IMG/VR virus record: IMGVR_UViG_3300030055_000003
DNA from: a virus
Taxonomy: Duplodnaviria; Caudoviricetes
DNA: 64,000 nt
Reading direction: 5' to 3' (one strand)
The position numbers and the translations under genes are program-made. The first letter of the stretch is position 1, and each line of letters opens with the position of its first letter. Under the pieces are notes generated by a model. The model saw only the letters and a list, made by a program, of their open reading frames with translations. It did no database searches and was not told where the DNA came from. Below, one piece after another: positions 3,603-38,887 of this stretch.

Positions 3603-3653
3603 AGTATAAATCTTCCAACCTAATAAGTCAATAGTCTTTCTATTAATTTATTT
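3603..3653 (-). promoter_or_regulatory. sigmaA promoter with upstream 16-bp operator copy
   Basis: TTGACT (3626-3631)-N17-TATACT (3603-3608); TTCTATTAATTTATTT at 3638-3653. Confidence 0.75.
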
Positions 3654-3712
3654 AAATAATATAAAAAGTTTCTAACAAATTTAATCTCTGCTAGAAACTT
3701 CTATGTTGTTAT

Positions 3713-3916
3713 TTAATTAAATCCTCCTAATATCCATTGAATTATTTTTATTGGTAACCAAAGTAACCACATTATTAGCCATACCCAAATAGGTATACAC
3801 AATGGAAAGAATCCATCTGAAAAATCTACCCATGTCCAATGAAAATCTCTTATATCTTTAGGTTTTATAAACCAAAAACCTATAAACATATAAATTCCAA
3901 AAGCTATGTACATCAT
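3713..3916 (-). CDS. Small membrane protein
   Basis: Two hydrophobic, Trp-rich segments. Confidence 0.7.
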   Translation of the reverse strand: MMYIAFGIYMFIGFWFIKPKDIRDFHWTWVDFSDGFFPLCIPIWVWLIMWLLWLPIKIIQWILGGFN

Positions 3917-15968: not shown

Positions 15969-17261
15969 TTAACCCTCCTTACGTAATTCTGTTCCATCAA
16001 TGATTAAATTAACTTTTCTACAATCTAACTTATCTTCATTTCTATATTTTATATCATAATAATCATTTATATCCAATACAAAATTAGACAAATGCCATAT
16101 TCTAGTTACTCCATCTTTGTTAATTCTAGTAATTATAAATCCACTTATATTGATTAACCATTGATATTTTGACACTTTTGAAATATCTTCTTTATCTATA
16201 ATCACTTTTACTTCGCTATTATTTCTTTTAATGGATATATATGCAATATCACCACATTCAATAATTAAATTTTTATGAACCTTTGTATGTTTTGTTTCTT
16301 CATTATTAAGCAAATTTAGTTCTTTTTTAACCTTTTTCCTTCTGTCGTATTCAATCTCAACTGCACCTAACCAATTAAAAAATATATGCATTATTTTATA
16401 TATATTAGCTTTACATATTATTTCTTTTGGATACCATATTTTAAATTTTTCTTCTATGGTTACAAAATCTATATCATATTTCCCATTATATAATTCATAT
16501 AAATAATCCATTCTTGCAGAACTCTCTAAATCATATAGTGCTATTCTCTTTATATTTATAACCTTACACGCCTTGTAAATTCTAGAATTAAGTGTATCAT
16601 AATTAACAATTTCATGGTTTTTGCCTTTTATTATATGAAAAATGTTTTTGTTAAAATCAATATATTTCTTTTTATGGATTTCCTTTGCTAAATCCATCCA
16701 TTTTAAGAAATCAGAATCCACACTAATATGCAGAATTATTTCTTCTTCTTCATTAAATATAATCACTTCTTTATTTTTAAAATCTATATCTTTCCACTTT
16801 ATTTGCCTAGCATATATCATCTTCTGACCAGTAATACCGTATCTAGCTAATATTAAAGGTAAAACATTGTCTATGCCATTTGCTTCAAAAATTTTTCTAC
16901 ACAAATTAAAAAAATTATACTTAGAAATATACCAAGAATTATCTACTTTGTTTTTTCGTTTTAATTTAAATTCTTTGAGTTCTTTATGATAACTTTTAGA
17001 ATACCATTTTAAATAAAATTTAATAAAAGAATTAAATGTATATAATATACTGTCACTTAAGTCTGTGACTTTTTCATTACATTTTTTAATTTCATCTTCT
17101 CCAAAATCATATAAGTCTTTATTAGATTCATTTTCAATGTCAGCTATATAATTCATATACAAGTTCCAATTTGTAATTTCAGTAGATTTAGAGTAATTAG
17201 AACCTTTAAAAAATAAATATTTATTTACTTGAAATTGACTAGGTATAGGCATAAATTCCAA
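15969..17261 (-). CDS. MrpR-like degenerate tyrosine-recombinase-fold protein fused to a degenerate HNH domain
   Basis: Aligns by eye with 29547..30656 (LxxYG...IKWxDxD); lacks HxxR/LGH; C-terminus VIIDKED...QW...HLSNFVL...DIKYRNEDKLDCRKVNL. Confidence 0.6.
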   Translation of the reverse strand: MEFMPIPSQFQVNKYLFFKGSNYSKSTEITNWNLYMNYIADIENESNKDLYDFGEDEIKKCNEKVTDLSDSILYTFNSFIKFYLKWYSKSYHKELKEFKLKRKNKVDNSWYISKYNFFNLCRKIFEANGIDNVLPLILARYGITGQKMIYARQIKWKDIDFKNKEVIIFNEEEEIILHISVDSDFLKWMDLAKEIHKKKYIDFNKNIFHIIKGKNHEIVNYDTLNSRIYKACKVINIKRIALYDLESSARMDYLYELYNGKYDIDFVTIEEKFKIWYPKEIICKANIYKIMHIFFNWLGAVEIEYDRRKKVKKELNLLNNEETKHTKVHKNLIIECGDIAYISIKRNNSEVKVIIDKEDISKVSKYQWLINISGFIITRINKDGVTRIWHLSNFVLDINDYYDIKYRNEDKLDCRKVNLIIDGTELRKEG

Positions 17262-24820: not shown

Positions 24821-25021
24821 TTTATATTCCTCCTCACTCTTCTTAAAATCTCAATTTATTTAGTTATATTTCTATTAATTTATTGACTACCATACTATTT
24901 TTAATTCTTCTTGGATTTCTTGGTCAATGTTATTTATAGTAATATATACTTTAAATAAGCCACTTAACACAATCAATCCAAATGTAAACATTATTAATTT
25001 TAACATACTTTTATCCTCCTC

Positions 25022-25687: not shown

Positions 25688-25768
25688 TCTATTAATTTGT
25701 TTATATTAACAGTATAGTCTTGCCACATCTAAATGTCAATAGATTTCATGTTATTTTATATTAATTTA

Positions 25769-27364
25769 TTAAATATGTATTGATCTATTATCATATTGAA
25801 AATGCAATCCCTTGTATTCCTGTCCTGTATTGCAAGCATGAGTTATTCCTTTTCTATAAAGTTTTATTCCAAATTCTTTTTCACTATTTGTATAACATTC
25901 ATTTATTGATGTAAATTCTTTATTATACTCTATATTTATAATTGATTTTTTACTAGAATCTCTTATAAATTTCTTATATTCTATTAATCCCTCATCTTCC
26001 GCTTGTTTTAAATAATCTCCTATTACTGTATTATCTAAATTAAGTAGTCTACCTATTTCAGAAGCATTATGTATTCCATTATTCCATAATTCAATTGCAT
26101 TAATTACATTTTTATCATGAATTTCTACTGCTGATATATAATTGCATAGATTATATTCTCTTGCCCTTTTTAAGTACCTCTTAACAGTTTTAAAATCTAT
26201 ATCCATTATTTTAGCAATCTCCATATGTCCTACTCCTTGATTATAATATTCACAAGCTTTAACTAAATACGAACTTAAAGATTCTTGTTCACATAAATTC
26301 CAATTAATTTTAGATATATCAAATAGTTTATTAATTTTTTCATTGTTTAATATATTATTTTTTATGTATTCAAATTTACTATACCTACAGTCAATTACTA
26401 TGTAATTTTCTTCTTTTATATTATTACTTAAAGCTAGTTTTTCTTTTAATTTATCATTTTCAGACTCTTCGTAATAACTTCTTCTAGAAAAACTACATTC
26501 TTCATAATGCTGAAGTCCATTTGTTTCTATCACAATGTTATTATGTTCTATATAAAAATCATATTCTTTGTTACCACATAAAGACTCTATTTCTGATAAT
26601 ACATTTTTAGACCAATCAAAATGTTTATGTCTTTTTATTTGTAAATTTAATTGTTTAAGTAGATTATATGTAAATTTTTCACCATAACTAAATCCGTCAG
26701 AACAAACTTGACAACAAATATCTTTTTCTCGATATAATGTAGATATTGCCATATTATCTCTTGGAACTTTACAAATCGGACAATGTAATAATCCTTTGTC
26801 TTGGCTTCCAAATGTTCTTGATTCTGCATCTTTAGTATTTTTAAAAAACTTAACCATCCACGGGTCTGTATCAGCGATTGTATTAATTCCTAAAACTGGT
26901 ACTTTATTAGAGCAACATCCACAACCTTGTTTCTTTTTCAAATTTCCCTCATTTATTCTTCCATTTTCCCAACCACATTCTAAGCATTCAAATATATATT
27001 CTTTTGTATTATCATTTTTATTTCTTGATTGTTCTTTAATCTTTATTTTTCCAGTAGATACTTCGATAATATCTCCTACATTGTAATAATGTTTACGTGT
27101 ATTTATTCCTAATAATTCACCTAATTGGCAATTCTGAAAATTACCTGTCCATATGTAAAATATATCTTTATTTAAATATTTTAAACCTAATATAGTTAGA
27201 CTATTTTCTCTTTTTACTTCTACAATTTCAACCCAACCTTCTTTATCATAATAAATAAATTTAACTTTATGACTTTTACATTCAAACCAATTTATTAAAC
27301 TATTGTTATTCTTTTTTCTAGGTAAATTTTCTAAAAATACTTTTCTAATTTTATTTTCTTTCAT
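25769..27364 (-). CDS. Putative homing endonuclease (Zn-ribbons, PD-(D/E)xK domain, HTH/NUMOD1-like tail)
   Basis: CLEC, CGCC, CPIC, CQVC; SYGE...KEYDFYIE...IETNGLQHY; C-terminal FTSINEC...ITHAC. Confidence 0.75.
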   Translation of the reverse strand: MKENKIRKVFLENLPRKKNNNSLINWFECKSHKVKFIYYDKEGWVEIVEVKRENSLTILGLKYLNKDIFYIWTGNFQNCQLGELLGINTRKHYYNVGDIIEVSTGKIKIKEQSRNKNDNTKEYIFECLECGWENGRINEGNLKKKQGCGCCSNKVPVLGINTIADTDPWMVKFFKNTKDAESRTFGSQDKGLLHCPICKVPRDNMAISTLYREKDICCQVCSDGFSYGEKFTYNLLKQLNLQIKRHKHFDWSKNVLSEIESLCGNKEYDFYIEHNNIVIETNGLQHYEECSFSRRSYYEESENDKLKEKLALSNNIKEENYIVIDCRYSKFEYIKNNILNNEKINKLFDISKINWNLCEQESLSSYLVKACEYYNQGVGHMEIAKIMDIDFKTVKRYLKRAREYNLCNYISAVEIHDKNVINAIELWNNGIHNASEIGRLLNLDNTVIGDYLKQAEDEGLIEYKKFIRDSSKKSIINIEYNKEFTSINECYTNSEKEFGIKLYRKGITHACNTGQEYKGLHFQYDNRSIHI

Positions 27365-27406
27365 TAACTATTCTCCTCTATTAATTTATTTTTAATATTA
27401 CAAAGA

Positions 27407-27436
27407 ACACAAACCAAGATTACTCCTAGTTTGTGT
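27407..27436 (-). terminator. Intrinsic terminator after pro-peptide gene
   Basis: ACACAAACTAGGA-GTAA-TCTTGGTTTGTGT stem with GNRA loop, followed by TCTTT. Confidence 0.8.
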
Positions 27437-27469
27437 CTTGTTGTTATGTATTTGTTTTAGTTACAATTC

Positions 27470-27574
27470 CTAGCCTCTACCAGAGCTAATTGCGTAACAA
27501 CTTATTTGACTAGCCATTGTAGCGATTGCTATTACTGCCATTAAAACAAATACTTTTACTTTTGATTTATTCAT
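27470..27574 (-). CDS. 34-aa secreted signalling pro-peptide (AimP/Phr-like); predicted mature ISSGRG
   Basis: Not in ORF track; AGGAGGTGAA RBS 6 nt before ATG; MNKSKVKVFVLMAVIAIATMASQISCYAISSGRG = basic N-region, hydrophobic core, C-Y-A cleavage site. Confidence 0.8.
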   Translation of the reverse strand: MNKSKVKVFVLMAVIAIATMASQISCYAISSGRG

Positions 27575-27589
27575 TTGTACTTCACCTCC

Positions 27590-27643
27590 TTCATATGCAT
27601 CTTTTCAACACAAAATATATTTATGCTGAAGTATGCATATGAA
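27590..27643. repeat. 11-bp inverted repeat abutting the pro-peptide RBS
   Basis: TTCATATGCAT (27590-27600) / ATGCATATGAA (27633-27643). Confidence 0.7.
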
Positions 27644-27668
27644 TAGAAGGATAACATTTAGTTATTTA

Positions 27669-28325
27669 TTAGCATGTACCATATTTTACTTTTATTTGTT
27701 GTTGCAATAACAATATTTTCTCACACAATATAATATTTATATTGTTTACCTCCTTTATTAATTCTTGAAAAGCCTCATCATATTGTGATGAATTGTTATG
27801 TATTAGCATGTCCTCTGCAACCACAAGGACATTACTAAAATTTTTTTCTAATAAACTTAAATTTAGTTTAGCAATAAGCTTTTCTAAATAACCTTCAACA
27901 TTATATGGATCACATCTTTTATAAGTTTCATAACAAAATTTATAAATTTTTATTAATTCTTCATTTGATAATTCTTTTTTATAGCAATGAACATAATTAT
28001 TTAAAGCTTTTGCATAGTCTTGTTTATGTCTTTGTGTGGTTAAATAATTAGGATAGTTCTCTAATTTTTCTTTAAGTTCTTTTGAATATAATCTAGCCGA
28101 GGTTATACTACCATTTAAATTTTGTTCAATACATTTTATTTCAGCATTTGTTAAATCACTTAATAATAATCTTATTTCATCTATATCTTTTAATGAATCT
28201 ATTTCTTGAAACCTCATTTTTTTTAGCATATTCCTAGCTTTTTCCACTCCATTTATCTCATTATCCCATTTATGATATACATCACTTTCTATCCTATCTG
28301 TTACGCTTCTTCTCTTATTTATCAT
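27669..28325 (-). CDS. All-helical TPR-like protein, candidate peptide receptor (RRNPP-like, no HTH)
   Basis: Amphipathic helical repeats with Asn motifs (YAKALNNY, AKLNLSLL); directly upstream of the pro-peptide gene. Confidence 0.55.
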   Translation of the reverse strand: MINKRRSVTDRIESDVYHKWDNEINGVEKARNMLKKMRFQEIDSLKDIDEIRLLLSDLTNAEIKCIEQNLNGSITSARLYSKELKEKLENYPNYLTTQRHKQDYAKALNNYVHCYKKELSNEELIKIYKFCYETYKRCDPYNVEGYLEKLIAKLNLSLLEKNFSNVLVVAEDMLIHNNSSQYDEAFQELIKEVNNINIILCEKILLLQQQIKVKYGTC

Positions 28326-28350
28326 TTTCTCATCCCCATTCCACCATAAG

Positions 28351-29154
28351 TTATATTGCTATCACTTCTTTTTCTTTCTCACATTGCATATAAAATTCCC
28401 TGTAATTTAGATTATTATCTTCACAATATATTTGTAATTCATATAATAAATCACTTCTTTCTTTTCGCAGAAGGTCGATTAAACTTTCTGTTTTGGTTTC
28501 TATAATTAATTCTTCACAATTCTTAATAGCATTTAATCGTTTGTTTATTTTATTTTGCATATATCTAGGCAGTTTTTCAAGTGGAGTCTTTTCTTGTAAT
28601 TCATTCATTGAAATATCTTTTGCTATTTTAATTTTCTTTTTTGTTATATCATCAAGTACTCCAACTCTGCTTTTAATTCTTCTTTTATCTAAAGTTCTTA
28701 CTTGCTCTAGCATAACTATTGAATCTTTAGGTAATCCAAATTGACCTGCTGAAATCTCGACATGCGTTGGAAGTTTACTTTTAGTTTGTTGGCTTGTAAC
28801 AAATGCTACTATAACAGTAGGAGAATACTTATTTCCAATTTCGTTCTGTATACAAATAGCGAATCTGTCATTATTTTGTTCGCTCCATCGCCCCCCATCT
28901 AAATTGACATATAATACCTCACCCCATTCAATATCCTTTAAATCTATATTATTATTTATTTTATTATCAGCAATATTTCTATTGCTATGTACATTGTTAA
29001 CTTCTATTTTTACTTGTTTAATTTGTTTATTAATATCTAGGTCTTTAACTTCTATCTTTGCTTCAATTAACTTATTATCATTCTTTAATTCCTCTTTATC
29101 CATTTCCAACTTAATCATCATTAGTTGTTCTCTTAACTCTAACATTACAACCAC
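28351..29154 (-). CDS. mazF: PemK/MazF (NdoA-like) endoribonuclease with N- and C-terminal extensions
   Basis: GEVLYVNL..SEQ..DRFAICIQNEIGNKYSPTVIVAFVTS...KLPTHVEI...DSIVMLEQVRTLDKRRI. Confidence 0.9.
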   Translation of the reverse strand: MVVMLELREQLMMIKLEMDKEELKNDNKLIEAKIEVKDLDINKQIKQVKIEVNNVHSNRNIADNKINNNIDLKDIEWGEVLYVNLDGGRWSEQNNDRFAICIQNEIGNKYSPTVIVAFVTSQQTKSKLPTHVEISAGQFGLPKDSIVMLEQVRTLDKRRIKSRVGVLDDITKKKIKIAKDISMNELQEKTPLEKLPRYMQNKINKRLNAIKNCEELIIETKTESLIDLLRKERSDLLYELQIYCEDNNLNYREFYMQCEKEKEVIAI

Positions 29155-29226
29155 CTTCCTCTAATTATTAAATCCCTTTAAAATTACTTTTTTATTATAT
29201 TAATTTGTTCCTGTTTCTATACTCTT

Positions 29227-29434
29227 ATGTTACATCTTATTTCCAAACTTGTCAATACTTTTTTTAAAATATTTATTTATTTCTTTTAATTTATTGACTT
29301 GTTCCTTATGAATATTATCCTACCACCATGTGGTAACTCTGTCAATACTTTTTTAAATTTATTTTTGTTCTTTTATTAATTTGTTTGTATCTCTTCTATG
29401 ACCTAATAATATACCCTACGGAATATAATGTCAA
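29227..29434 (-). promoter_or_regulatory. Three tandem sigmaA promoters upstream of the mazF-receptor-peptide operon
   Basis: TTGACA at 29250-55, 29340-45 and 29429-34, each with a -10-like hexamer at 17 nt. Confidence 0.7.
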
Positions 29435-29524
29435 CACTTTTATCAAAATAATTTGTAGTTCTGTTAATTTATTTTAAACACTCCTTAAACATAGCAAATA
29501 AGCCAAATAAATAAACAAAAAGAA

Positions 29525-29547
29525 AAGGTTGGATGCTTGCTCCAACC
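29525..29547 (-). terminator. Intrinsic terminator after MrpR-like gene
   Basis: AGGTTGGA..TCCAACCT followed by T-rich tract. Confidence 0.75.
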
Positions 29548-30656
29548 TAGCTCTCTATCTTTTCTGAATCAATACTTACTTCTAATTCAGATGATAATTC
29601 AATTTCTATCTCTTTATTTTCAACTTTAGAAATATTTTTATTAGTTCTCTTTTTTGTTTTTATATCTAATCCTGATATTAATTGAAAATCTCTTCGGACT
29701 CTTGAGTTTTTATTTACTGTAAACGTATTGTCATATATTTCATTTACATCATCTATATCAATATTTGTAACCATATCATTTTGTTTATATTTTTCAAATA
29801 ATAAATCAAATCTTCTATTCATATTTAAATTAGGTACACTTATTCTATTAATTCCATTACTTTTTGAAAGATTTCCTAGTTTATTATATACATCTTCGGC
29901 ACTCATATGTTGCCAATCAACTCTTTCAGTTGTTTTAATAATAAATCCTATATCTAAATAATTAATGTCTTCCATTTCTGTTTCTTTTTTATTAACTCTT
30001 TTCAAACTTGCTTTTGATTGTTTTCTTGGTTTAGTAAAACAATTTTTAGCTGAATCTATAAATCTTATAAATGAATTATCAATCGGCAATTCCAACAAAC
30101 CTTTTTCTTCTGAATAAACATTTAAAATTTTCTTTTCTCTATCTACATCTTCCCATTTTATAGTTCCCACATTATCTATAGGAACTCCATATCTTAACAA
30201 TGTCAACATTGCCCTGTCTACATCTGTACAATCTAATCCATATATAAATTCATTAAATTCTTGAAGTGTCTTGTACTGTTGTTTCTTAGCTTCATCACTA
30301 ACATCAAATAAACCAGTTGTATCAATTGAATCACATGGATTCCCTACATAGTTATAACCTTTTTTATATGCCCAACCTATATAATTTGATATTGTAGTAA
30401 ATAACATACTTTTTGTTGTCATTGAAGTTGTTGCAGTAGTTTTTATTGCTTGAATTATCTCTTGTTTAGTCCAATTATACAATTCTTTCTCTTTGTTTAA
30501 TTCTAAGAAATTGACTCTAGTATTTAACAAAATCCAGTAAGTTCTTTTTGTAGTATCTGAATATCTATCTTCGACTTCTTCTAACCAATCAGCTTTTCTT
30601 TTTAGATATTCATTTAAACCATCATATTTTACATCTTCATCTAAGAATTCATACAT
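29547..30656 (-). CDS. MrpR/SroF-like phage master repressor (catalytically degenerate tyrosine-recombinase fold)
   Basis: Integrase SAM-like N-domain (TTKRTY...KELYNWT...ISNYIGWA...NP); LLRYG...IKWEDVD; no HxxR/LGH/Tyr set. Confidence 0.7.
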   Translation of the reverse strand: MYEFLDEDVKYDGLNEYLKRKADWLEEVEDRYSDTTKRTYWILLNTRVNFLELNKEKELYNWTKQEIIQAIKTTATTSMTTKSMLFTTISNYIGWAYKKGYNYVGNPCDSIDTTGLFDVSDEAKKQQYKTLQEFNEFIYGLDCTDVDRAMLTLLRYGVPIDNVGTIKWEDVDREKKILNVYSEEKGLLELPIDNSFIRFIDSAKNCFTKPRKQSKASLKRVNKKETEMEDINYLDIGFIIKTTERVDWQHMSAEDVYNKLGNLSKSNGINRISVPNLNMNRRFDLLFEKYKQNDMVTNIDIDDVNEIYDNTFTVNKNSRVRRDFQLISGLDIKTKKRTNKNISKVENKEIEIELSSELEVSIDSEKIES

Positions 30657-30657
30657 T

Positions 30658-32043
30658 CTACATTACCTCCTTAGCTATCTTTTCAAAATATTCATATATG
30701 TGTTTTACATTACAATCTTTTATATCTAATTTAAATTTTTTATTTAAATCTTCATTAATTTTTATTAGCTTATCAGCCACATCTCCAGCTAATAATCTTG
30801 AATTTTCATTGTTTTTTAATACGTTCGCTATTGCAAGATAACCAACAAACATATTAGGTTTTAATAAAAAGTTATGTTCTTTCATTACTTCTATATCGTC
30901 ACCAAAGTATTGAGACGATAAATATTCAATTAACATATCTATAATATTAGATATTTTTCTTGCTTCTCTTTCAGATGTTACGTCATTATCTATTTTTTCA
31001 ATATCCATAAACTCTACACTATCATTAAGAACACTTAGATAAGTTAATGATTTTTTTACTTTACATTCGCTAATAATATTTGCAACCTTATTTTTTAATG
31101 TTTTTGAATTAGTAGTTACATATTGTATAAATCTATTTTCTGGTGTATCTTTTAAAGTTTTTGCATAGGTTTTATCTGTTGAATTTTGTTCAAAAGTATC
31201 GGAAGTATATTGTTTTGCTTCACTTGGACTCATTAAAAAGAAAAATACACCTAATCCTTCATCTTCAACTTCTGTGTCTTCAAAATAAGCGTCCGCTAAA
31301 GCAGTAGATCTATGATTTCCATCATTTATTATCATTGGAGTATAATTAATTGAATTACTATCAAAATTTGGAGTAACTTCTAGTCTTCCAAACTTCTTCT
31401 TATACTCAGGAATAAATTTAACTTGTGGTTCTTTATTAGGCATATCTAAAACAGTAAAAGTTATAGCTGTTGGTTTTATATTGTGTTTTTTAAATCTTTG
31501 AATTAAAGAATTAATTCCATCTTTATTTACATTGATTTTTTCAATCTCTTCACCATTTGGAAGTTTTACAATTTTTCTAGCTCTTTGAATCCCTTCAAAA
31601 TTTCCCAACTTATTATTTTCTTTTATTTGCGCAAGTTGTTTAGCTTTGATGAAAAACCAATAAGCATTATTTCCAACCTTTTGACAATCTTCAAATACAA
31701 TTGTTTTTAATTCTTCTTGCTTTTCAGCTTCTTGATATACCTCATAATTCGTTAATACTGTACCTGTAAAATAATCTGTTGGATTTATATTAACTCCTAA
31801 ATTCTTTTCATTAGCTTTTGCAAAATTAAAAATTGATTTTGATAAAGCTATTAATACATTTTCATTTTTTATTTCATGTACTGTTAGCCCTTTATTGAAT
31901 AGTAATGCTGGAATATCTAAATTTAATCCTTTAGCACTAAATTCTTTATTGATATCTTGTTGTAATCTCATATTCGCTATTTCATTTTGAATAACCAATG
32001 TTAAATTGTCCTTTAAAATGTTTATATTAATCTTATCACTCAT
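30658..32043 (-). CDS. DGQHR/DndB-like (ParB/Srx-type) domain protein, SroE-like
   Basis: IINDGNHRSTAL motif; F..EQN motif; coupled to MrpR-like gene. Confidence 0.65.
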   Translation of the reverse strand: MSDKININILKDNLTLVIQNEIANMRLQQDINKEFSAKGLNLDIPALLFNKGLTVHEIKNENVLIALSKSIFNFAKANEKNLGVNINPTDYFTGTVLTNYEVYQEAEKQEELKTIVFEDCQKVGNNAYWFFIKAKQLAQIKENNKLGNFEGIQRARKIVKLPNGEEIEKINVNKDGINSLIQRFKKHNIKPTAITFTVLDMPNKEPQVKFIPEYKKKFGRLEVTPNFDSNSINYTPMIINDGNHRSTALADAYFEDTEVEDEGLGVFFFLMSPSEAKQYTSDTFEQNSTDKTYAKTLKDTPENRFIQYVTTNSKTLKNKVANIISECKVKKSLTYLSVLNDSVEFMDIEKIDNDVTSEREARKISNIIDMLIEYLSSQYFGDDIEVMKEHNFLLKPNMFVGYLAIANVLKNNENSRLLAGDVADKLIKINEDLNKKFKLDIKDCNVKHIYEYFEKIAKEVM

Positions 32044-37963: not shown

Positions 37964-38887
37964 TTATAAATTGTTCAATGGATTACTCTTTACAGCTTCA
38001 CGACTTTGTTCATCATCTACATGAGTATAAATTTGGGTATTAGATACTGATGAATGACCAAGAATACTCTGAAGTTGTCTTATATCTACTTTTCCGTATT
38101 TATACATAAGTGTAGCACTTGTATGCCTTAATTTATGCACAGTATACTTACTAGAGTCATTTATTCCAGAATTTTGTATATATTCTTTTACTAATACTTC
38201 TATTCTTCCTTTTTTAATATTAAACAATCTTCCATCTAAAATATTGTAATCATCTCTTATATTTAAATAATCATTTAATACTTTTAAACAAGTTTCATTC
38301 ATGTATATAGTCCTCTCCTTGTTCCCCTTACCAATAACAGTTAATACATCACCTTTAATATTATCAACCTTGATACCCTCTAGTTCAGAAAGTCTCATGC
38401 CTGTTTGTAGGAATAATGTCACAATACAATAATCTCTAGTATAATTTTCATTATTCTTATTCATTGAAGTTAATAATTGTTTGCTTTCATTTAAAGATAG
38501 ATAGATTGGATTTCTCTTTTGCTTTTTAGGGACTATTAGACCATAAGCTGGATTTACTGTGATAAGTTTTTCTATGTTTTGTAGATATTCAAAATAAGAT
38601 TTCAAAGTGTAAGTTTTTCTTGTTCTTGCAGATGCTCCACAACTTTTTTCTTTGTTTTCTAAATACATCATAAAAGCATTTAAATCTTTTAGTTCAACCT
38701 TTTTAATAACCATGTTAGTTATATCTTTCTTATTCTTATGTATTTTTAAAAAATCAAATAGTAAATGTAAATCACTTCTATAAGATTTTAAAGTATCTGT
38801 AGTTAATCCTTTCATTGTTCTACAATAGTTTAAAAAGTTTTCAGCATTTTCTATCAACTTATCTTCTCTAGCTTTCATATCAATCAA
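37964..38887 (-). CDS. XerC/D-like tyrosine recombinase (catalytic residues intact)
   Basis: TGMRLSE, GKGNKER, HKLRH, LGHSSVSNTQIY. Confidence 0.92.
   Translation of the reverse strand: MIDMKAREDKLIENAENFLNYCRTMKGLTTDTLKSYRSDLHLLFDFLKIHKNKKDITNMVIKKVELKDLNAFMMYLENKEKSCGASARTRKTYTLKSYFEYLQNIEKLITVNPAYGLIVPKKQKRNPIYLSLNESKQLLTSMNKNNENYTRDYCIVTLFLQTGMRLSELEGIKVDNIKGDVLTVIGKGNKERTIYMNETCLKVLNDYLNIRDDYNILDGRLFNIKKGRIEVLVKEYIQNSGINDSSKYTVHKLRHTSATLMYKYGKVDIRQLQSILGHSSVSNTQIYTHVDDEQSREAVKSNPLNNL

Follow-up and report, generated by a model that had tools for sequence, protein, structure and literature searches.

An extended MazF, a candidate peptide receptor, and a pro-peptide gene form a conserved operon in large low-GC phages

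We analyzed a 64,000-nucleotide (nt) stretch of DNA (the window) from the IMG/VR virus record IMGVR_UViG_3300030055_000003 (Duplodnaviria; Caudoviricetes). A minus-strand operon in the window encodes, in order, an extended MazF RNase, a 218-amino acid (aa) protein resembling tetratricopeptide repeat (TPR) proteins, and a 34-codon pro-peptide, and it is closed by a terminator. An initial annotation, made from the sequence alone, had located the same elements at the same positions and read them as an arbitrium-like circuit with a Rap-like receptor. In our analysis, the 218-aa protein and the peptide probably constitute a signalling pair. The full statement is that this is an RRNPP/arbitrium-type peptide-signalling cassette with a minimal receptor, coupled post-translationally to the phage MazF through a C-terminal extension of the toxin; the balance of evidence for it is even. 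The parts of the initial interpretation that survive are the MazF, the TPR-like protein without a helix-turn-helix (HTH) domain, the conserved pro-peptide, and the co-variation of peptides with receptor clades. By sequence, size, and peptide motif, the system belongs to neither the arbitrium (AimR/AimP) nor the Rap family. A literature search found no paper on a MazF–receptor–peptide operon. The operon comprises the following features.

29227..29434, minus strand: three tandem sigma-70-like promoters (promoter scan)
28351..29154, minus strand: extended MazF/PemK endoribonuclease, 267 aa (Pfam, PHROG, PDB, and AlphaFold2 [AF2] model)
27669..28325, minus strand: 218-aa HTH-less TPR-like protein, candidate intracellular peptide receptor (AF2 model, fold searches)
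27585..27650, minus strand: nested RNA hairpin in the receptor–peptide spacer (folding energy, compensatory changes)
27470..27574, minus strand: 34-codon pro-peptide gene (open reading frame [ORF], Shine-Dalgarno sequence, relatives)
27406..27437, minus strand: intrinsic terminator of the operon (14-bp stem, GUAA tetraloop)

Homologs of the candidate receptor were recovered in 18 distinct loci (designated by L numbers where they must be told apart), and a MazF gene lies directly upstream of the receptor gene in all 18; in some of them, only the MazF C-terminus is on the contig. The MazF–receptor order holds for distant members (profile E 2.6e-11 and 2.7e-7). Among loci with at least ~150 nt of downstream sequence, which we counted as informative for the peptide, an ORF of 29–38 codons follows the receptor gene in 15 of 15, each with a strong Shine-Dalgarno sequence and a product that runs from a basic N-terminus through a hydrophobic core to a short polar tail. 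The following tails were recorded.

ISSGRG: window, L001
TGSSRG: L002
TTGSGRG: L008, L011
SSGSGRG: L009
GPGVRG: L012
AGSGRG: L013
TGGPRG: L014
TGSPRG: L017
GSIGRG: L025
TTGSKG: L027
SSGGGWG: L024
SSGNGWG: L030
TINP: L022

A maximum-likelihood tree divides the receptors into two clades (support 100/99). Clade A receptors are accompanied by x[R/K]G tails in 11 of 11 cases and clade B receptors by xGWG or TINP, and sister receptors have common tails. Conservation of the three-gene order, with tails co-varying with receptor clades, had been proposed as a check of the initial annotation, and the loci behave in this way. Within clade A, W20 of the receptor is invariant and residue 21 is aspartate in 10 of 11 sequences; L027, also in clade A, has glutamate at residue 21 and a peptide ending in KG, and clade B receptors have C/Y-F at residues 20–21. 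A contact between these two residues and the R/K of the peptide is an anecdotal lead from these alignments.

The window and L001 offer an informative pair. Their receptors are 70% identical and their peptides both end in ISSGRG, behind unrelated leaders (MNKSKVKV... versus MKKILNYAL...). Because the tail is kept behind unrelated leaders, it appears to be the part under selection, with the leader serving as an exchangeable export vehicle. Tail conservation with leader exchange is what a ligand–receptor pair would predict and would be hard to fit to a membrane anchor. Across the loci, we observed two unrelated leader types. Type 1 leaders (MK.S.K.K...) have an AxA site; type 2 leaders (MKKIL[SN]YAL...) are shorter and have no clear AxA. 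The leader types were recorded from the following ORFs.

L001, 1732–1830
L013, 5088–5177
L024, 4567–4659
L030, 4334–4423

Since type 2 leaders are present in both receptor clades, leaders appear to have been exchanged independently of tails. Export or processing of peptides with type 2 leaders may follow another route, possibly one that is short hydrophobic peptide (SHP)-like.

The window pro-peptide gene (27574..27470) follows the receptor gene on the same strand after a 94-nt spacer and lies behind GAAGGAGGTGA. The minus-strand ORF with a strong ribosome-binding site that the initial annotation had reported is indeed present, preceded by GAAGGAGGTGAAGTACAA-ATG. Its product has a basic N-terminus (net +3), a 12-residue Kyte-Doolittle maximum of 2.9, and the tail CYA/ISSGRG. 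The small ORF thus resembles a three-region Sec signal peptide, and the −3/−1 rule predicts cleavage at CYA/ISSGRG. A scan of both strands of the 64-kb window for small ORFs with a Shine-Dalgarno sequence, a basic N-terminus, and a hydrophobic core gave two matches, including this one; given the scan and the retention of the ORF, with its position and architecture, in 14 other divergent loci, it is more than a chance occurrence. The pro-peptides measure 34 aa in the window and 29–38 aa in relatives, with an N-region of net +2 to +5 and a hydrophobic core scoring 2.3–2.9 (Kyte-Doolittle). In most loci, an AxA-like site (CYA, VFA, AFA, ALA, AWA, ASA, or VLA) directly precedes the tail, so signal peptidase alone would release a 6–7-residue peptide. 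Two other assignments for the peptide were considered and rejected: a lipoprotein, as the cysteine is not conserved among homologs, and a precursor of a ribosomally synthesized and post-translationally modified peptide, as there are no modifying enzymes nearby and the N-terminus is signal-peptide-like rather than leader-like.

The receptor gene (28325..27669) begins 25 nt after the MazF stop codon. An AF2 model, built from five sequences only, reached a predicted local distance difference test (pLDDT) score of 90.3 and a predicted template modelling score of 0.84, and it consists of ten long helices arranged in pairs. The initial annotation had described an all-helical, HTH-less, TPR-like protein and expected a TPR superhelix; the model agrees, depicting what is predicted to be a five-repeat TPR-like solenoid. 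No HTH was detected by Pfam, and the model contains long repeat helices only. The top VIA-align matches are TPR proteins, many of them generic; they include RapI (Z 11.7), PlcR of the PlcR-PapR complex (11.2), NprR (10.1), and the Rap of phage phi105 (9.8). The RapI match covers the TPR part only (residues 171–374) and lies within the range of generic TPR matches. Foldseek searches of the model against PDB, AFDB clusters, and BFVD returned generic TPR or designed-repeat matches only, at E>0.001, and the ESM Atlas likewise gave generic TPR matches only. From these models, a specific kinship of the 218-aa protein to RRNPP receptors is neither shown nor excluded.

By sequence, the receptor matched no Pfam, PHROG, NCBIfam, or PADLOC family, and comparison with PDB by sequence or profile gave noise only and no AimR chain. 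An exhaustive profile search gathered 56 representative clusters, whose full-length members are all 197–229 aa; none of the 56 representatives is fused to an HTH or other domain. No TPR family in Pfam matched the window receptor at E≤1, and weak TPR-type matches were obtained for only 3–4 of 45 relatives. A wide alignment of the family (A4) has no conserved stretch, and the P0155 scan of viral contigs gave no match. Judged by these comparisons, the receptor family appears to be new.

The first gene of the operon had been called a MazF RNase, and this assignment stands on intact catalytic positions, a strong Pfam match, and the lack of a MazE-type neighbor. The PemK/MazF domain occupies residues 78–176 of the 267-aa ORF (29154..28351; Pfam E 1.3e-24, 87 bits versus a cut-off of 23.1), PHROG annotates the protein as a "MazF-like growth inhibitor," and EndoA/MazF structures in PDB were matched at E ~1e-25. 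The RNase core is closest to Bacillus EndoA/MazF, with ~50% identity over ~108 residues. Both catalytic columns, Arg and Thr, are preserved, with the Arg of NDRFA aligning with the Arg of GGVRPV and the Thr of VTSQ with the Thr of ITAQ; we take the catalytic positions to be R25 and T48 of B. subtilis MazF. T120 and S121 are invariant in 26 members of the MazF family. In the AF2 model, the core (~75–183, nt 28929..28606) is flanked by a disordered N-terminal extension (residues 1–70) and by a C-terminal extension of three helices (~190–263, nt 28587..28354), of which residues 197–263 have a pLDDT of ~90. A conserved linker, KTPLEKLP, connects the core and the C-terminal extension. Approximately 30 clusters of 245–286 aa have the same extended architecture. 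Neither extension gave a meaningful match by phmmer against PDB, nor did the C-terminal extension in the ESM Atlas. No MazE-type (AbrB or ribbon-helix-helix) antitoxin gene is found nearby: the 392-nt upstream spacer contains no coding-strand ORF of ≥25 aa, and the downstream gene encodes the TPR-like protein, not MazE. The B. subtilis MazF site UACAU is not depleted in the operon mRNA (2.19/kb versus 2.02/kb in the window).

The two parts of the MazF gene have different histories relative to the receptor. In a comparison of 15 loci, the more alike two receptors are, the more alike are their MazF C-terminal extensions (Pearson 0.88, Spearman 0.80); no such relation holds for identity of the RNase core (0.06). 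In the 11 loci that also have the upstream repressor gene, the correlation between receptor and C-terminal extension is 0.83 (Mantel p 0.0002); those of the receptor with the core (r 0.11) and with the repressor (r 0.13) are not significant, and core and C-terminal extension are uncorrelated (r 0.01). Individual comparisons illustrate the same point. Between the window and L012, the repressor and core are 86% and 87% identical, and the C-terminal extension and receptor are 34% and 36% identical; between the window and L001, the core is only 37% identical, and the C-terminal extension and receptor are 71% and 70% identical. The MazF gene thus looks like a mosaic at the sequence level. From the correlations and these two comparisons, the C-terminal extension, receptor, and peptide move as one unit, with a recurrent breakpoint that falls inside the toxin gene and not between the genes. 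Such a pattern would be expected if the C-terminal extension were the docking site of the receptor.

In the mechanism that we propose, host RNA polymerase would transcribe the operon from the three sigma-70-type promoters. Sec would export the pro-peptide, and cleavage behind the AxA-like site would yield a peptide of 6–7 residues (ISSGRG in the window), which would build up as infected or lysogenic cells become denser and would re-enter through an oligopeptide permease. Inside the cell, the peptide would bind the concave face of the receptor, in the TPR groove. The peptide-free receptor would dock on the MazF C-terminal extension and keep the RNase silent, and peptide binding would release it. 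At high peptide levels, free MazF would then favor lysogeny or dormancy, by analogy with phi3T, in which AimX and YosL act as inhibitors of the host MazF, which promotes lysogeny when free (PMC10769878). Which way the switch turns, a point drawn from that analogy, is the least certain step. In its most specific form, the proposal describes an arbitrium-like decision taken wholly at the post-translational level; it makes the minimal HTH-less receptor a peptide-released antitoxin that docks on the three-helix domain and makes the toxin C-terminal domain, receptor, and peptide a pherotype cassette exchanged among large low-GC phages; we put this version forward tentatively, as a possibility. Co-folding of two copies of MazF residues 70–267 with the receptor scored 0.37 versus 0.49 for the control, which speaks neither for nor against docking.

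Several observations weigh against this interpretation. The matches of the receptor to RRNPP-type folds are not above those to unrelated generic TPR proteins. No clear AxA site is present in type 2 leaders or in clade B peptides. The ORF at the peptide position in L020 (clade B, 3629–3729) has an acidic start, MKKFMDEDFLLSNE (MKKFMDED...), and is not signal-like, after which the contig ends; going by its sequence, the signal gene has been lost there, or the ORF encodes a peptide of another kind. In L015 (4293–4542) and L026 (3775–4204), the extended MazF gene is present and the receptor and peptide genes are missing, and L032 and L039 have shorter MazF versions with unrelated downstream genes. 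Because these four loci lack the cassette, the receptor is neither universal nor the sole safeguard of these toxins, and the MazF extension may itself be regulatory. The correlation between C-terminal extension and receptor could stem partly from physical linkage and from a recombination hot spot at the KTPLEKLP linker. Finally, the loci all come from a single lineage of large low-GC phages and share their synteny, so the co-occurrences are not independent. In a side observation on the loci without the cassette, the 256-aa gene next downstream of the peptide gene in L030 and the gene next downstream of MazF in L015 are homologous. Taken with the lack of the pair in L015 and L026, this homology indicates that the receptor–peptide pair behaves as an insertion or deletion.

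Three alternative explanations were weighed. In the first, the receptor and peptide are a real quorum-sensing pair, and the receptor acts on another protein. It could be an anti-repressor under peptide control that targets the neighboring SroF/MrpR-like repressor, or it could target a host regulator in the manner of Rap, leaving MazF as a co-transcribed effector or moron. A TPR receptor without an HTH must act by protein contact, as Rap proteins do, and the fold resembles RapI and the phi105 Rap; the operon adjoins repressor genes; and extended MazF can exist without the cassette. Nevertheless, receptor divergence tracks the MazF C-terminal extension (r 0.83, p 0.0002) and not the SroF-like neighbor (r 0.13, not significant), and a receptor without MazF directly upstream was never seen in the 18 loci. 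We therefore consider a different target unlikely.

The second alternative is a toxin–antitoxin module in which the 218-aa protein is a constitutive antitoxin and the product of the small ORF is not a signal but a peptide that is inserted in the membrane or secreted in another role (for example, as an anchor, small toxin, or exclusion factor). The toxin-first order, the 25-nt gap, and the missing MazE would suit such a module, antitoxins of the MazF family are known to be swapped among unrelated folds, and peptide cleavage is predicted only. What makes this account quite unlikely is the behavior of the peptide, as only the 6–7 residues after the hydrophobic segment are conserved, these residues are kept under leader replacement in the window and L001, and the tails change in step with receptor clades, which fits a ligand and not a membrane anchor. 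In addition, the TPR groove is a peptide-binding fold, and L015 and L026 have MazF without the putative antitoxin. The third alternative, prophage defense or superinfection exclusion, with MazF as an abortive-infection effector auto-inhibited by its C-terminal domain, the TPR protein as a sensor of an invading-phage protein, and the peptide, if a signal, tuning defense among kin lysogens, would agree with host-type promoters unlike those of most window genes with the AATAAATTAATA motif, with MazF being a known anti-phage effector (PMC10769878), and with the ability of MazF with its C-terminal extension to stand alone, but it is improbable, given that PADLOC models match none of MazF, receptor, and repressor, that a phage-protein trigger is without support, and that a lysis–lysogeny role accords better with the position beside the repressor and with a peptide architecture like that of arbitrium.

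Under the peptide-gated MazF model, output of the signal may be controlled at the RNA level. The spacer between the receptor and peptide genes folds into a hairpin (27585..27650) whose 3′ arm pairs with the AGGAGG of the peptide gene (27590..27585), with CCUUCU as its partner. The window hairpin has a minimum free energy of −30.6 kcal/mol (z −7.4); across loci, the values range from −24 to −31 kcal/mol, with z of −4.9 to −10.7 versus shuffled sequences. Of the loci in clade A plus L022, 13 of 13 (window, L001, L002, L008, L009, L011–L014, L017, L022, L025, and L027) have this fold; their arm sequences differ and the pairing is kept, and compensatory changes affect 11 of 15 alifold pairs. It is absent from the clade B loci L024 and L030. 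No Rfam family matched the hairpin or any other part of 27300–29600. As read from the pairing, the hairpin probably blocks translation of the peptide from the polycistronic mRNA, uncoupling peptide output; that output would then depend on processing, an internal start, or a stem-opening factor. The hairpin may thus be a new cis-regulatory RNA controlling peptide output. A candidate promoter inside the hairpin (TTAGCA, 16–17 nt, TAATAA) is weakly conserved and is kept here as an idea.

Upstream of MazF, three promoters at 29434, 29345, and 29255, ~90 bp apart, conform to AAAGT[A/G]TTGACA, a 17-nt spacer, and a −10 box, with hexamer matches of 11/12, 10/12, and 10/12. The motif AAAGTATTGACA occurs six times in the window versus 1.55 expected, with three of the six at the MazF promoters. 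Since the terminator of the preceding repressor gene (29548..29526) is followed by these three sigma-70-like promoters, the MazF operon forms a separate transcription unit. The tandem promoters could be sites for the SroF-like repressor. Near-consensus promoters of the sigma-70 type are absent from most other genes of the window. At the other end, the GNRA-loop terminator named in the initial annotation is present at 27437..27406, with a 14-bp stem, a GUAA tetraloop, and a T-rich tail. Relatives have an equivalent terminator hairpin, with the apex conserved as GAGAAATCTT or GAGTAATCTT. In these operon terminators, the apex GAG[A/T]AATCTT is kept and closed by a GNRA tetraloop, with compensated variation in the stems; simple intrinsic terminators do not usually have a loop whose sequence is conserved.

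A different signal recurs throughout the phage. The 12-mer AATAAATTAATA (searched as AAWAAATTAATA) has 27 copies in the whole window versus 2.3 expected, 23 of them on the coding strand and mostly just 5′ of the ribosome-binding sites of genes; example minus-strand copies from the motif count are at 27379–27390, 25759–25770, and 24873–24884. The same word precedes genes in related phage loci. Judging from this placement, AATAAATTAATA looks like a phage-specific promoter or leader motif. One gene with its own AATAAATTAATA motif follows the peptide terminator and encodes a 531-aa HTH/endonuclease-like protein. Proteins of this kind, of 524–531 aa and with homing-endonuclease-like PHROG matches (phrog_4538, E 3e-63), follow the peptide terminator in several, not all, related loci. 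Because other loci carry different genes there, the region 3′ of the cassette is variable. The copies are listed below.

Window, 25769–27364, minus strand
L002, 4937–6511
L014, 5247–6839
L027, 4536–6110

Two further genes lie upstream of the operon.

29547..30656, minus strand: SroF (MrpR/YopR) homolog, 369 aa (Pfam, ortholog profile versus PDB)
30658..32043, minus strand: DndB/DGQHR-like (ParB-type) protein, 461 aa (sub-cut-off Pfam and NCBIfam matches)

In Pfam, the product of the 369-aa gene matched MrpR_N_CB at the cut-off of that family; with a profile built from 12 orthologs, PDB 9rd5 (E 2.2e-9) and YopR/MrpR (8bj6 and 8a0a; E 2e-4) were matched. By these matches, the protein appears to be homologous to SroF (MrpR/YopR), the master repressor of SPbeta/phi3T with an integrase-like fold. 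The 461-aa protein matched Pfam DndB (E 2.7e-6) and NCBIfam DGQHR (E 1.2e-7), both below cut-off. Its gene ends 1 nt before the repressor gene, a position that mirrors that of yopQ before yopR in SPbeta; YopQ is ParB_N_Srx-like and is encoded in one operon with yopR (PMC8612738). In SPbeta-like phages, the sro repressor operon is part of the arbitrium decision module. The operon thus has an SPbeta-type placement beside sro-like repressor genes. Elsewhere in the window, a second MrpR_N_CB-like protein of 430 aa is encoded at 15969–17261 on the minus strand, with its N-terminal domain matching at E 1.6e-5, just under the cut-off, and a tyrosine integrase is encoded at 37964–38887 on the minus strand (Phage_integrase, E 9.8e-32). 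From these matches, the phage may possess two SroF/YopP-like integrase-fold regulators in addition to a true integrase. The integrase and repressor homologs argue for a temperate lifestyle.

The source record is a virus contig of 140,944 b with a CheckV completeness of 57%. The G+C content of the window is 24.5%, its DNA was found in at least 24 peat-metagenome runs, with no RNA run among the public runs listed for it, and the same proteins are present on contigs of up to 283,734 b. The synteny of a 95-aa gene, DGQHR-like gene, SroF-like gene, MazF, receptor, and peptide recurs on viral contigs of 84–229 kb. Among the isolated phages of INPHARED, there was no match to the DNA, the receptor, or the SroF-like protein, and MazF was matched by its core only; nor was a relative of the neighboring repressor found in isolated GenBank phages. 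The species genomes of GTDB contained no receptor relative and thus yielded no prophage copy and no host assignment. Based on Shine-Dalgarno usage and the Bacillus-like MazF core, the host is likely of a low-GC Gram-positive type; the clostridial host named in the initial annotation is a guess.

Among known systems, the arbitrium of SPbeta/phi3T-like Bacillus phages has several features in common with the locus: a phage gene for an intracellular helical-repeat receptor followed by a pro-peptide (here of predicted Sec type) with a C-terminal signal of ~6 residues, pherotype diversification with peptide and receptor diverging together (PMC13220667), an adjoining SroF/MrpR integrase-fold repressor, and an output connected (here putatively) to MazF (PMC10769878). 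The differences are equally clear. The receptor has 218 aa rather than ~386 aa, lacks an HTH, and shows no sequence similarity to AimR that could be detected; nothing resembling aimX or an antiterminator target follows the peptide gene, where a strong terminator stands. The tails, with RG, KG, WG, or NP as their last two residues and GA in no case, differ from AimP hexapeptides such as GMPRGA, SAIRGA, GIVRGA, and GFTVGA (PMC13220667), which end in RGA or VGA; only the R-G dipeptide is common to both. In most loci here, maturation of the peptide would need no cut other than that made by signal peptidase. The MazF in the present operon is phage-encoded and extended, whereas arbitrium involves the host MazF.

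Rap-Phr systems, including the phage phi105 Rap (PDB 8rte), likewise combine a TPR receptor that lacks a DNA-binding domain and would have to act by protein contact with a phr-like gene directly downstream, whose pro-peptide (here predicted to be exported) contains a C-terminal active oligopeptide. The present receptor is ~160 residues shorter than Rap (~380 aa), consists of five helix pairs without a distinct three-helix effector domain at the N-terminus, and shares no sequence similarity; its presumed target is a toxin domain, not Spo0F or ComA. The locus also resembles the signature used by RRNPP_detector (PMC10075063), a small pro-peptide gene (10–100 aa) beside a cytoplasmic TPR-type protein on a mobile element of a low-GC Gram-positive type, in that the two genes are direct neighbors and the modeled receptor has a TPR-type fold. 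The receptor differs from the signature by falling below the 250–500-aa range and by being unmatched by TPR hidden Markov models, for which reasons the published screen would miss this family.

Short linear peptides, extracellular death factors (EDF) such as NNWNN and RGQQNE, have been reported to modulate the RNase activity of MazF in a density-dependent manner in the context of MazEF (PMC3668371, PMC5930309), and this literature is the only other known case of peptides modulating MazF. EDF peptides are reported to bind MazF directly and are fragments of housekeeping proteins; the operon described here has a dedicated pro-peptide gene and a receptor, with no MazE. Other toxins are fused to or auto-inhibited by a regulatory C-terminal domain, as in CapRel-type fused toxin–antitoxins. 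The extended MazF is similar in having a C-terminal helical extension as a possible regulatory handle and in being able to occur alone, but it has a different toxin fold, and a separate receptor gene co-varies with the extension.

To our knowledge, phage peptide communication by arbitrium is known almost only from Bacillus phages. Arbitrium works through a DNA-binding receptor, and in phi3T, the final effect is exerted by an indirect route via the host MazF. The locus described here would represent a much shorter circuit, with toxin, receptor, and signal in one operon beside a master repressor of the same kind; the phages that carry it are uncultured, measure ~200–280 kb, and come from peat and other metagenomes. 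The comparison suggests that the receptor family and the proposed toxin-coupled output are new and that the system is otherwise of a known kind, the peptide quorum sensing of mobile elements. Similar minimal systems may be systematically missed by published RRNPP screens. Co-inheritance of the cassette provides a concrete hypothesis for peptide gating of an RNase, and the RG, KG, WG, and NP tails constitute a natural panel of cognate and non-cognate pairs. If the proposed mechanism is true, phages would communicate with one another through a toxin outside Bacillus, and the link between MazF and lysogeny would become directly testable.

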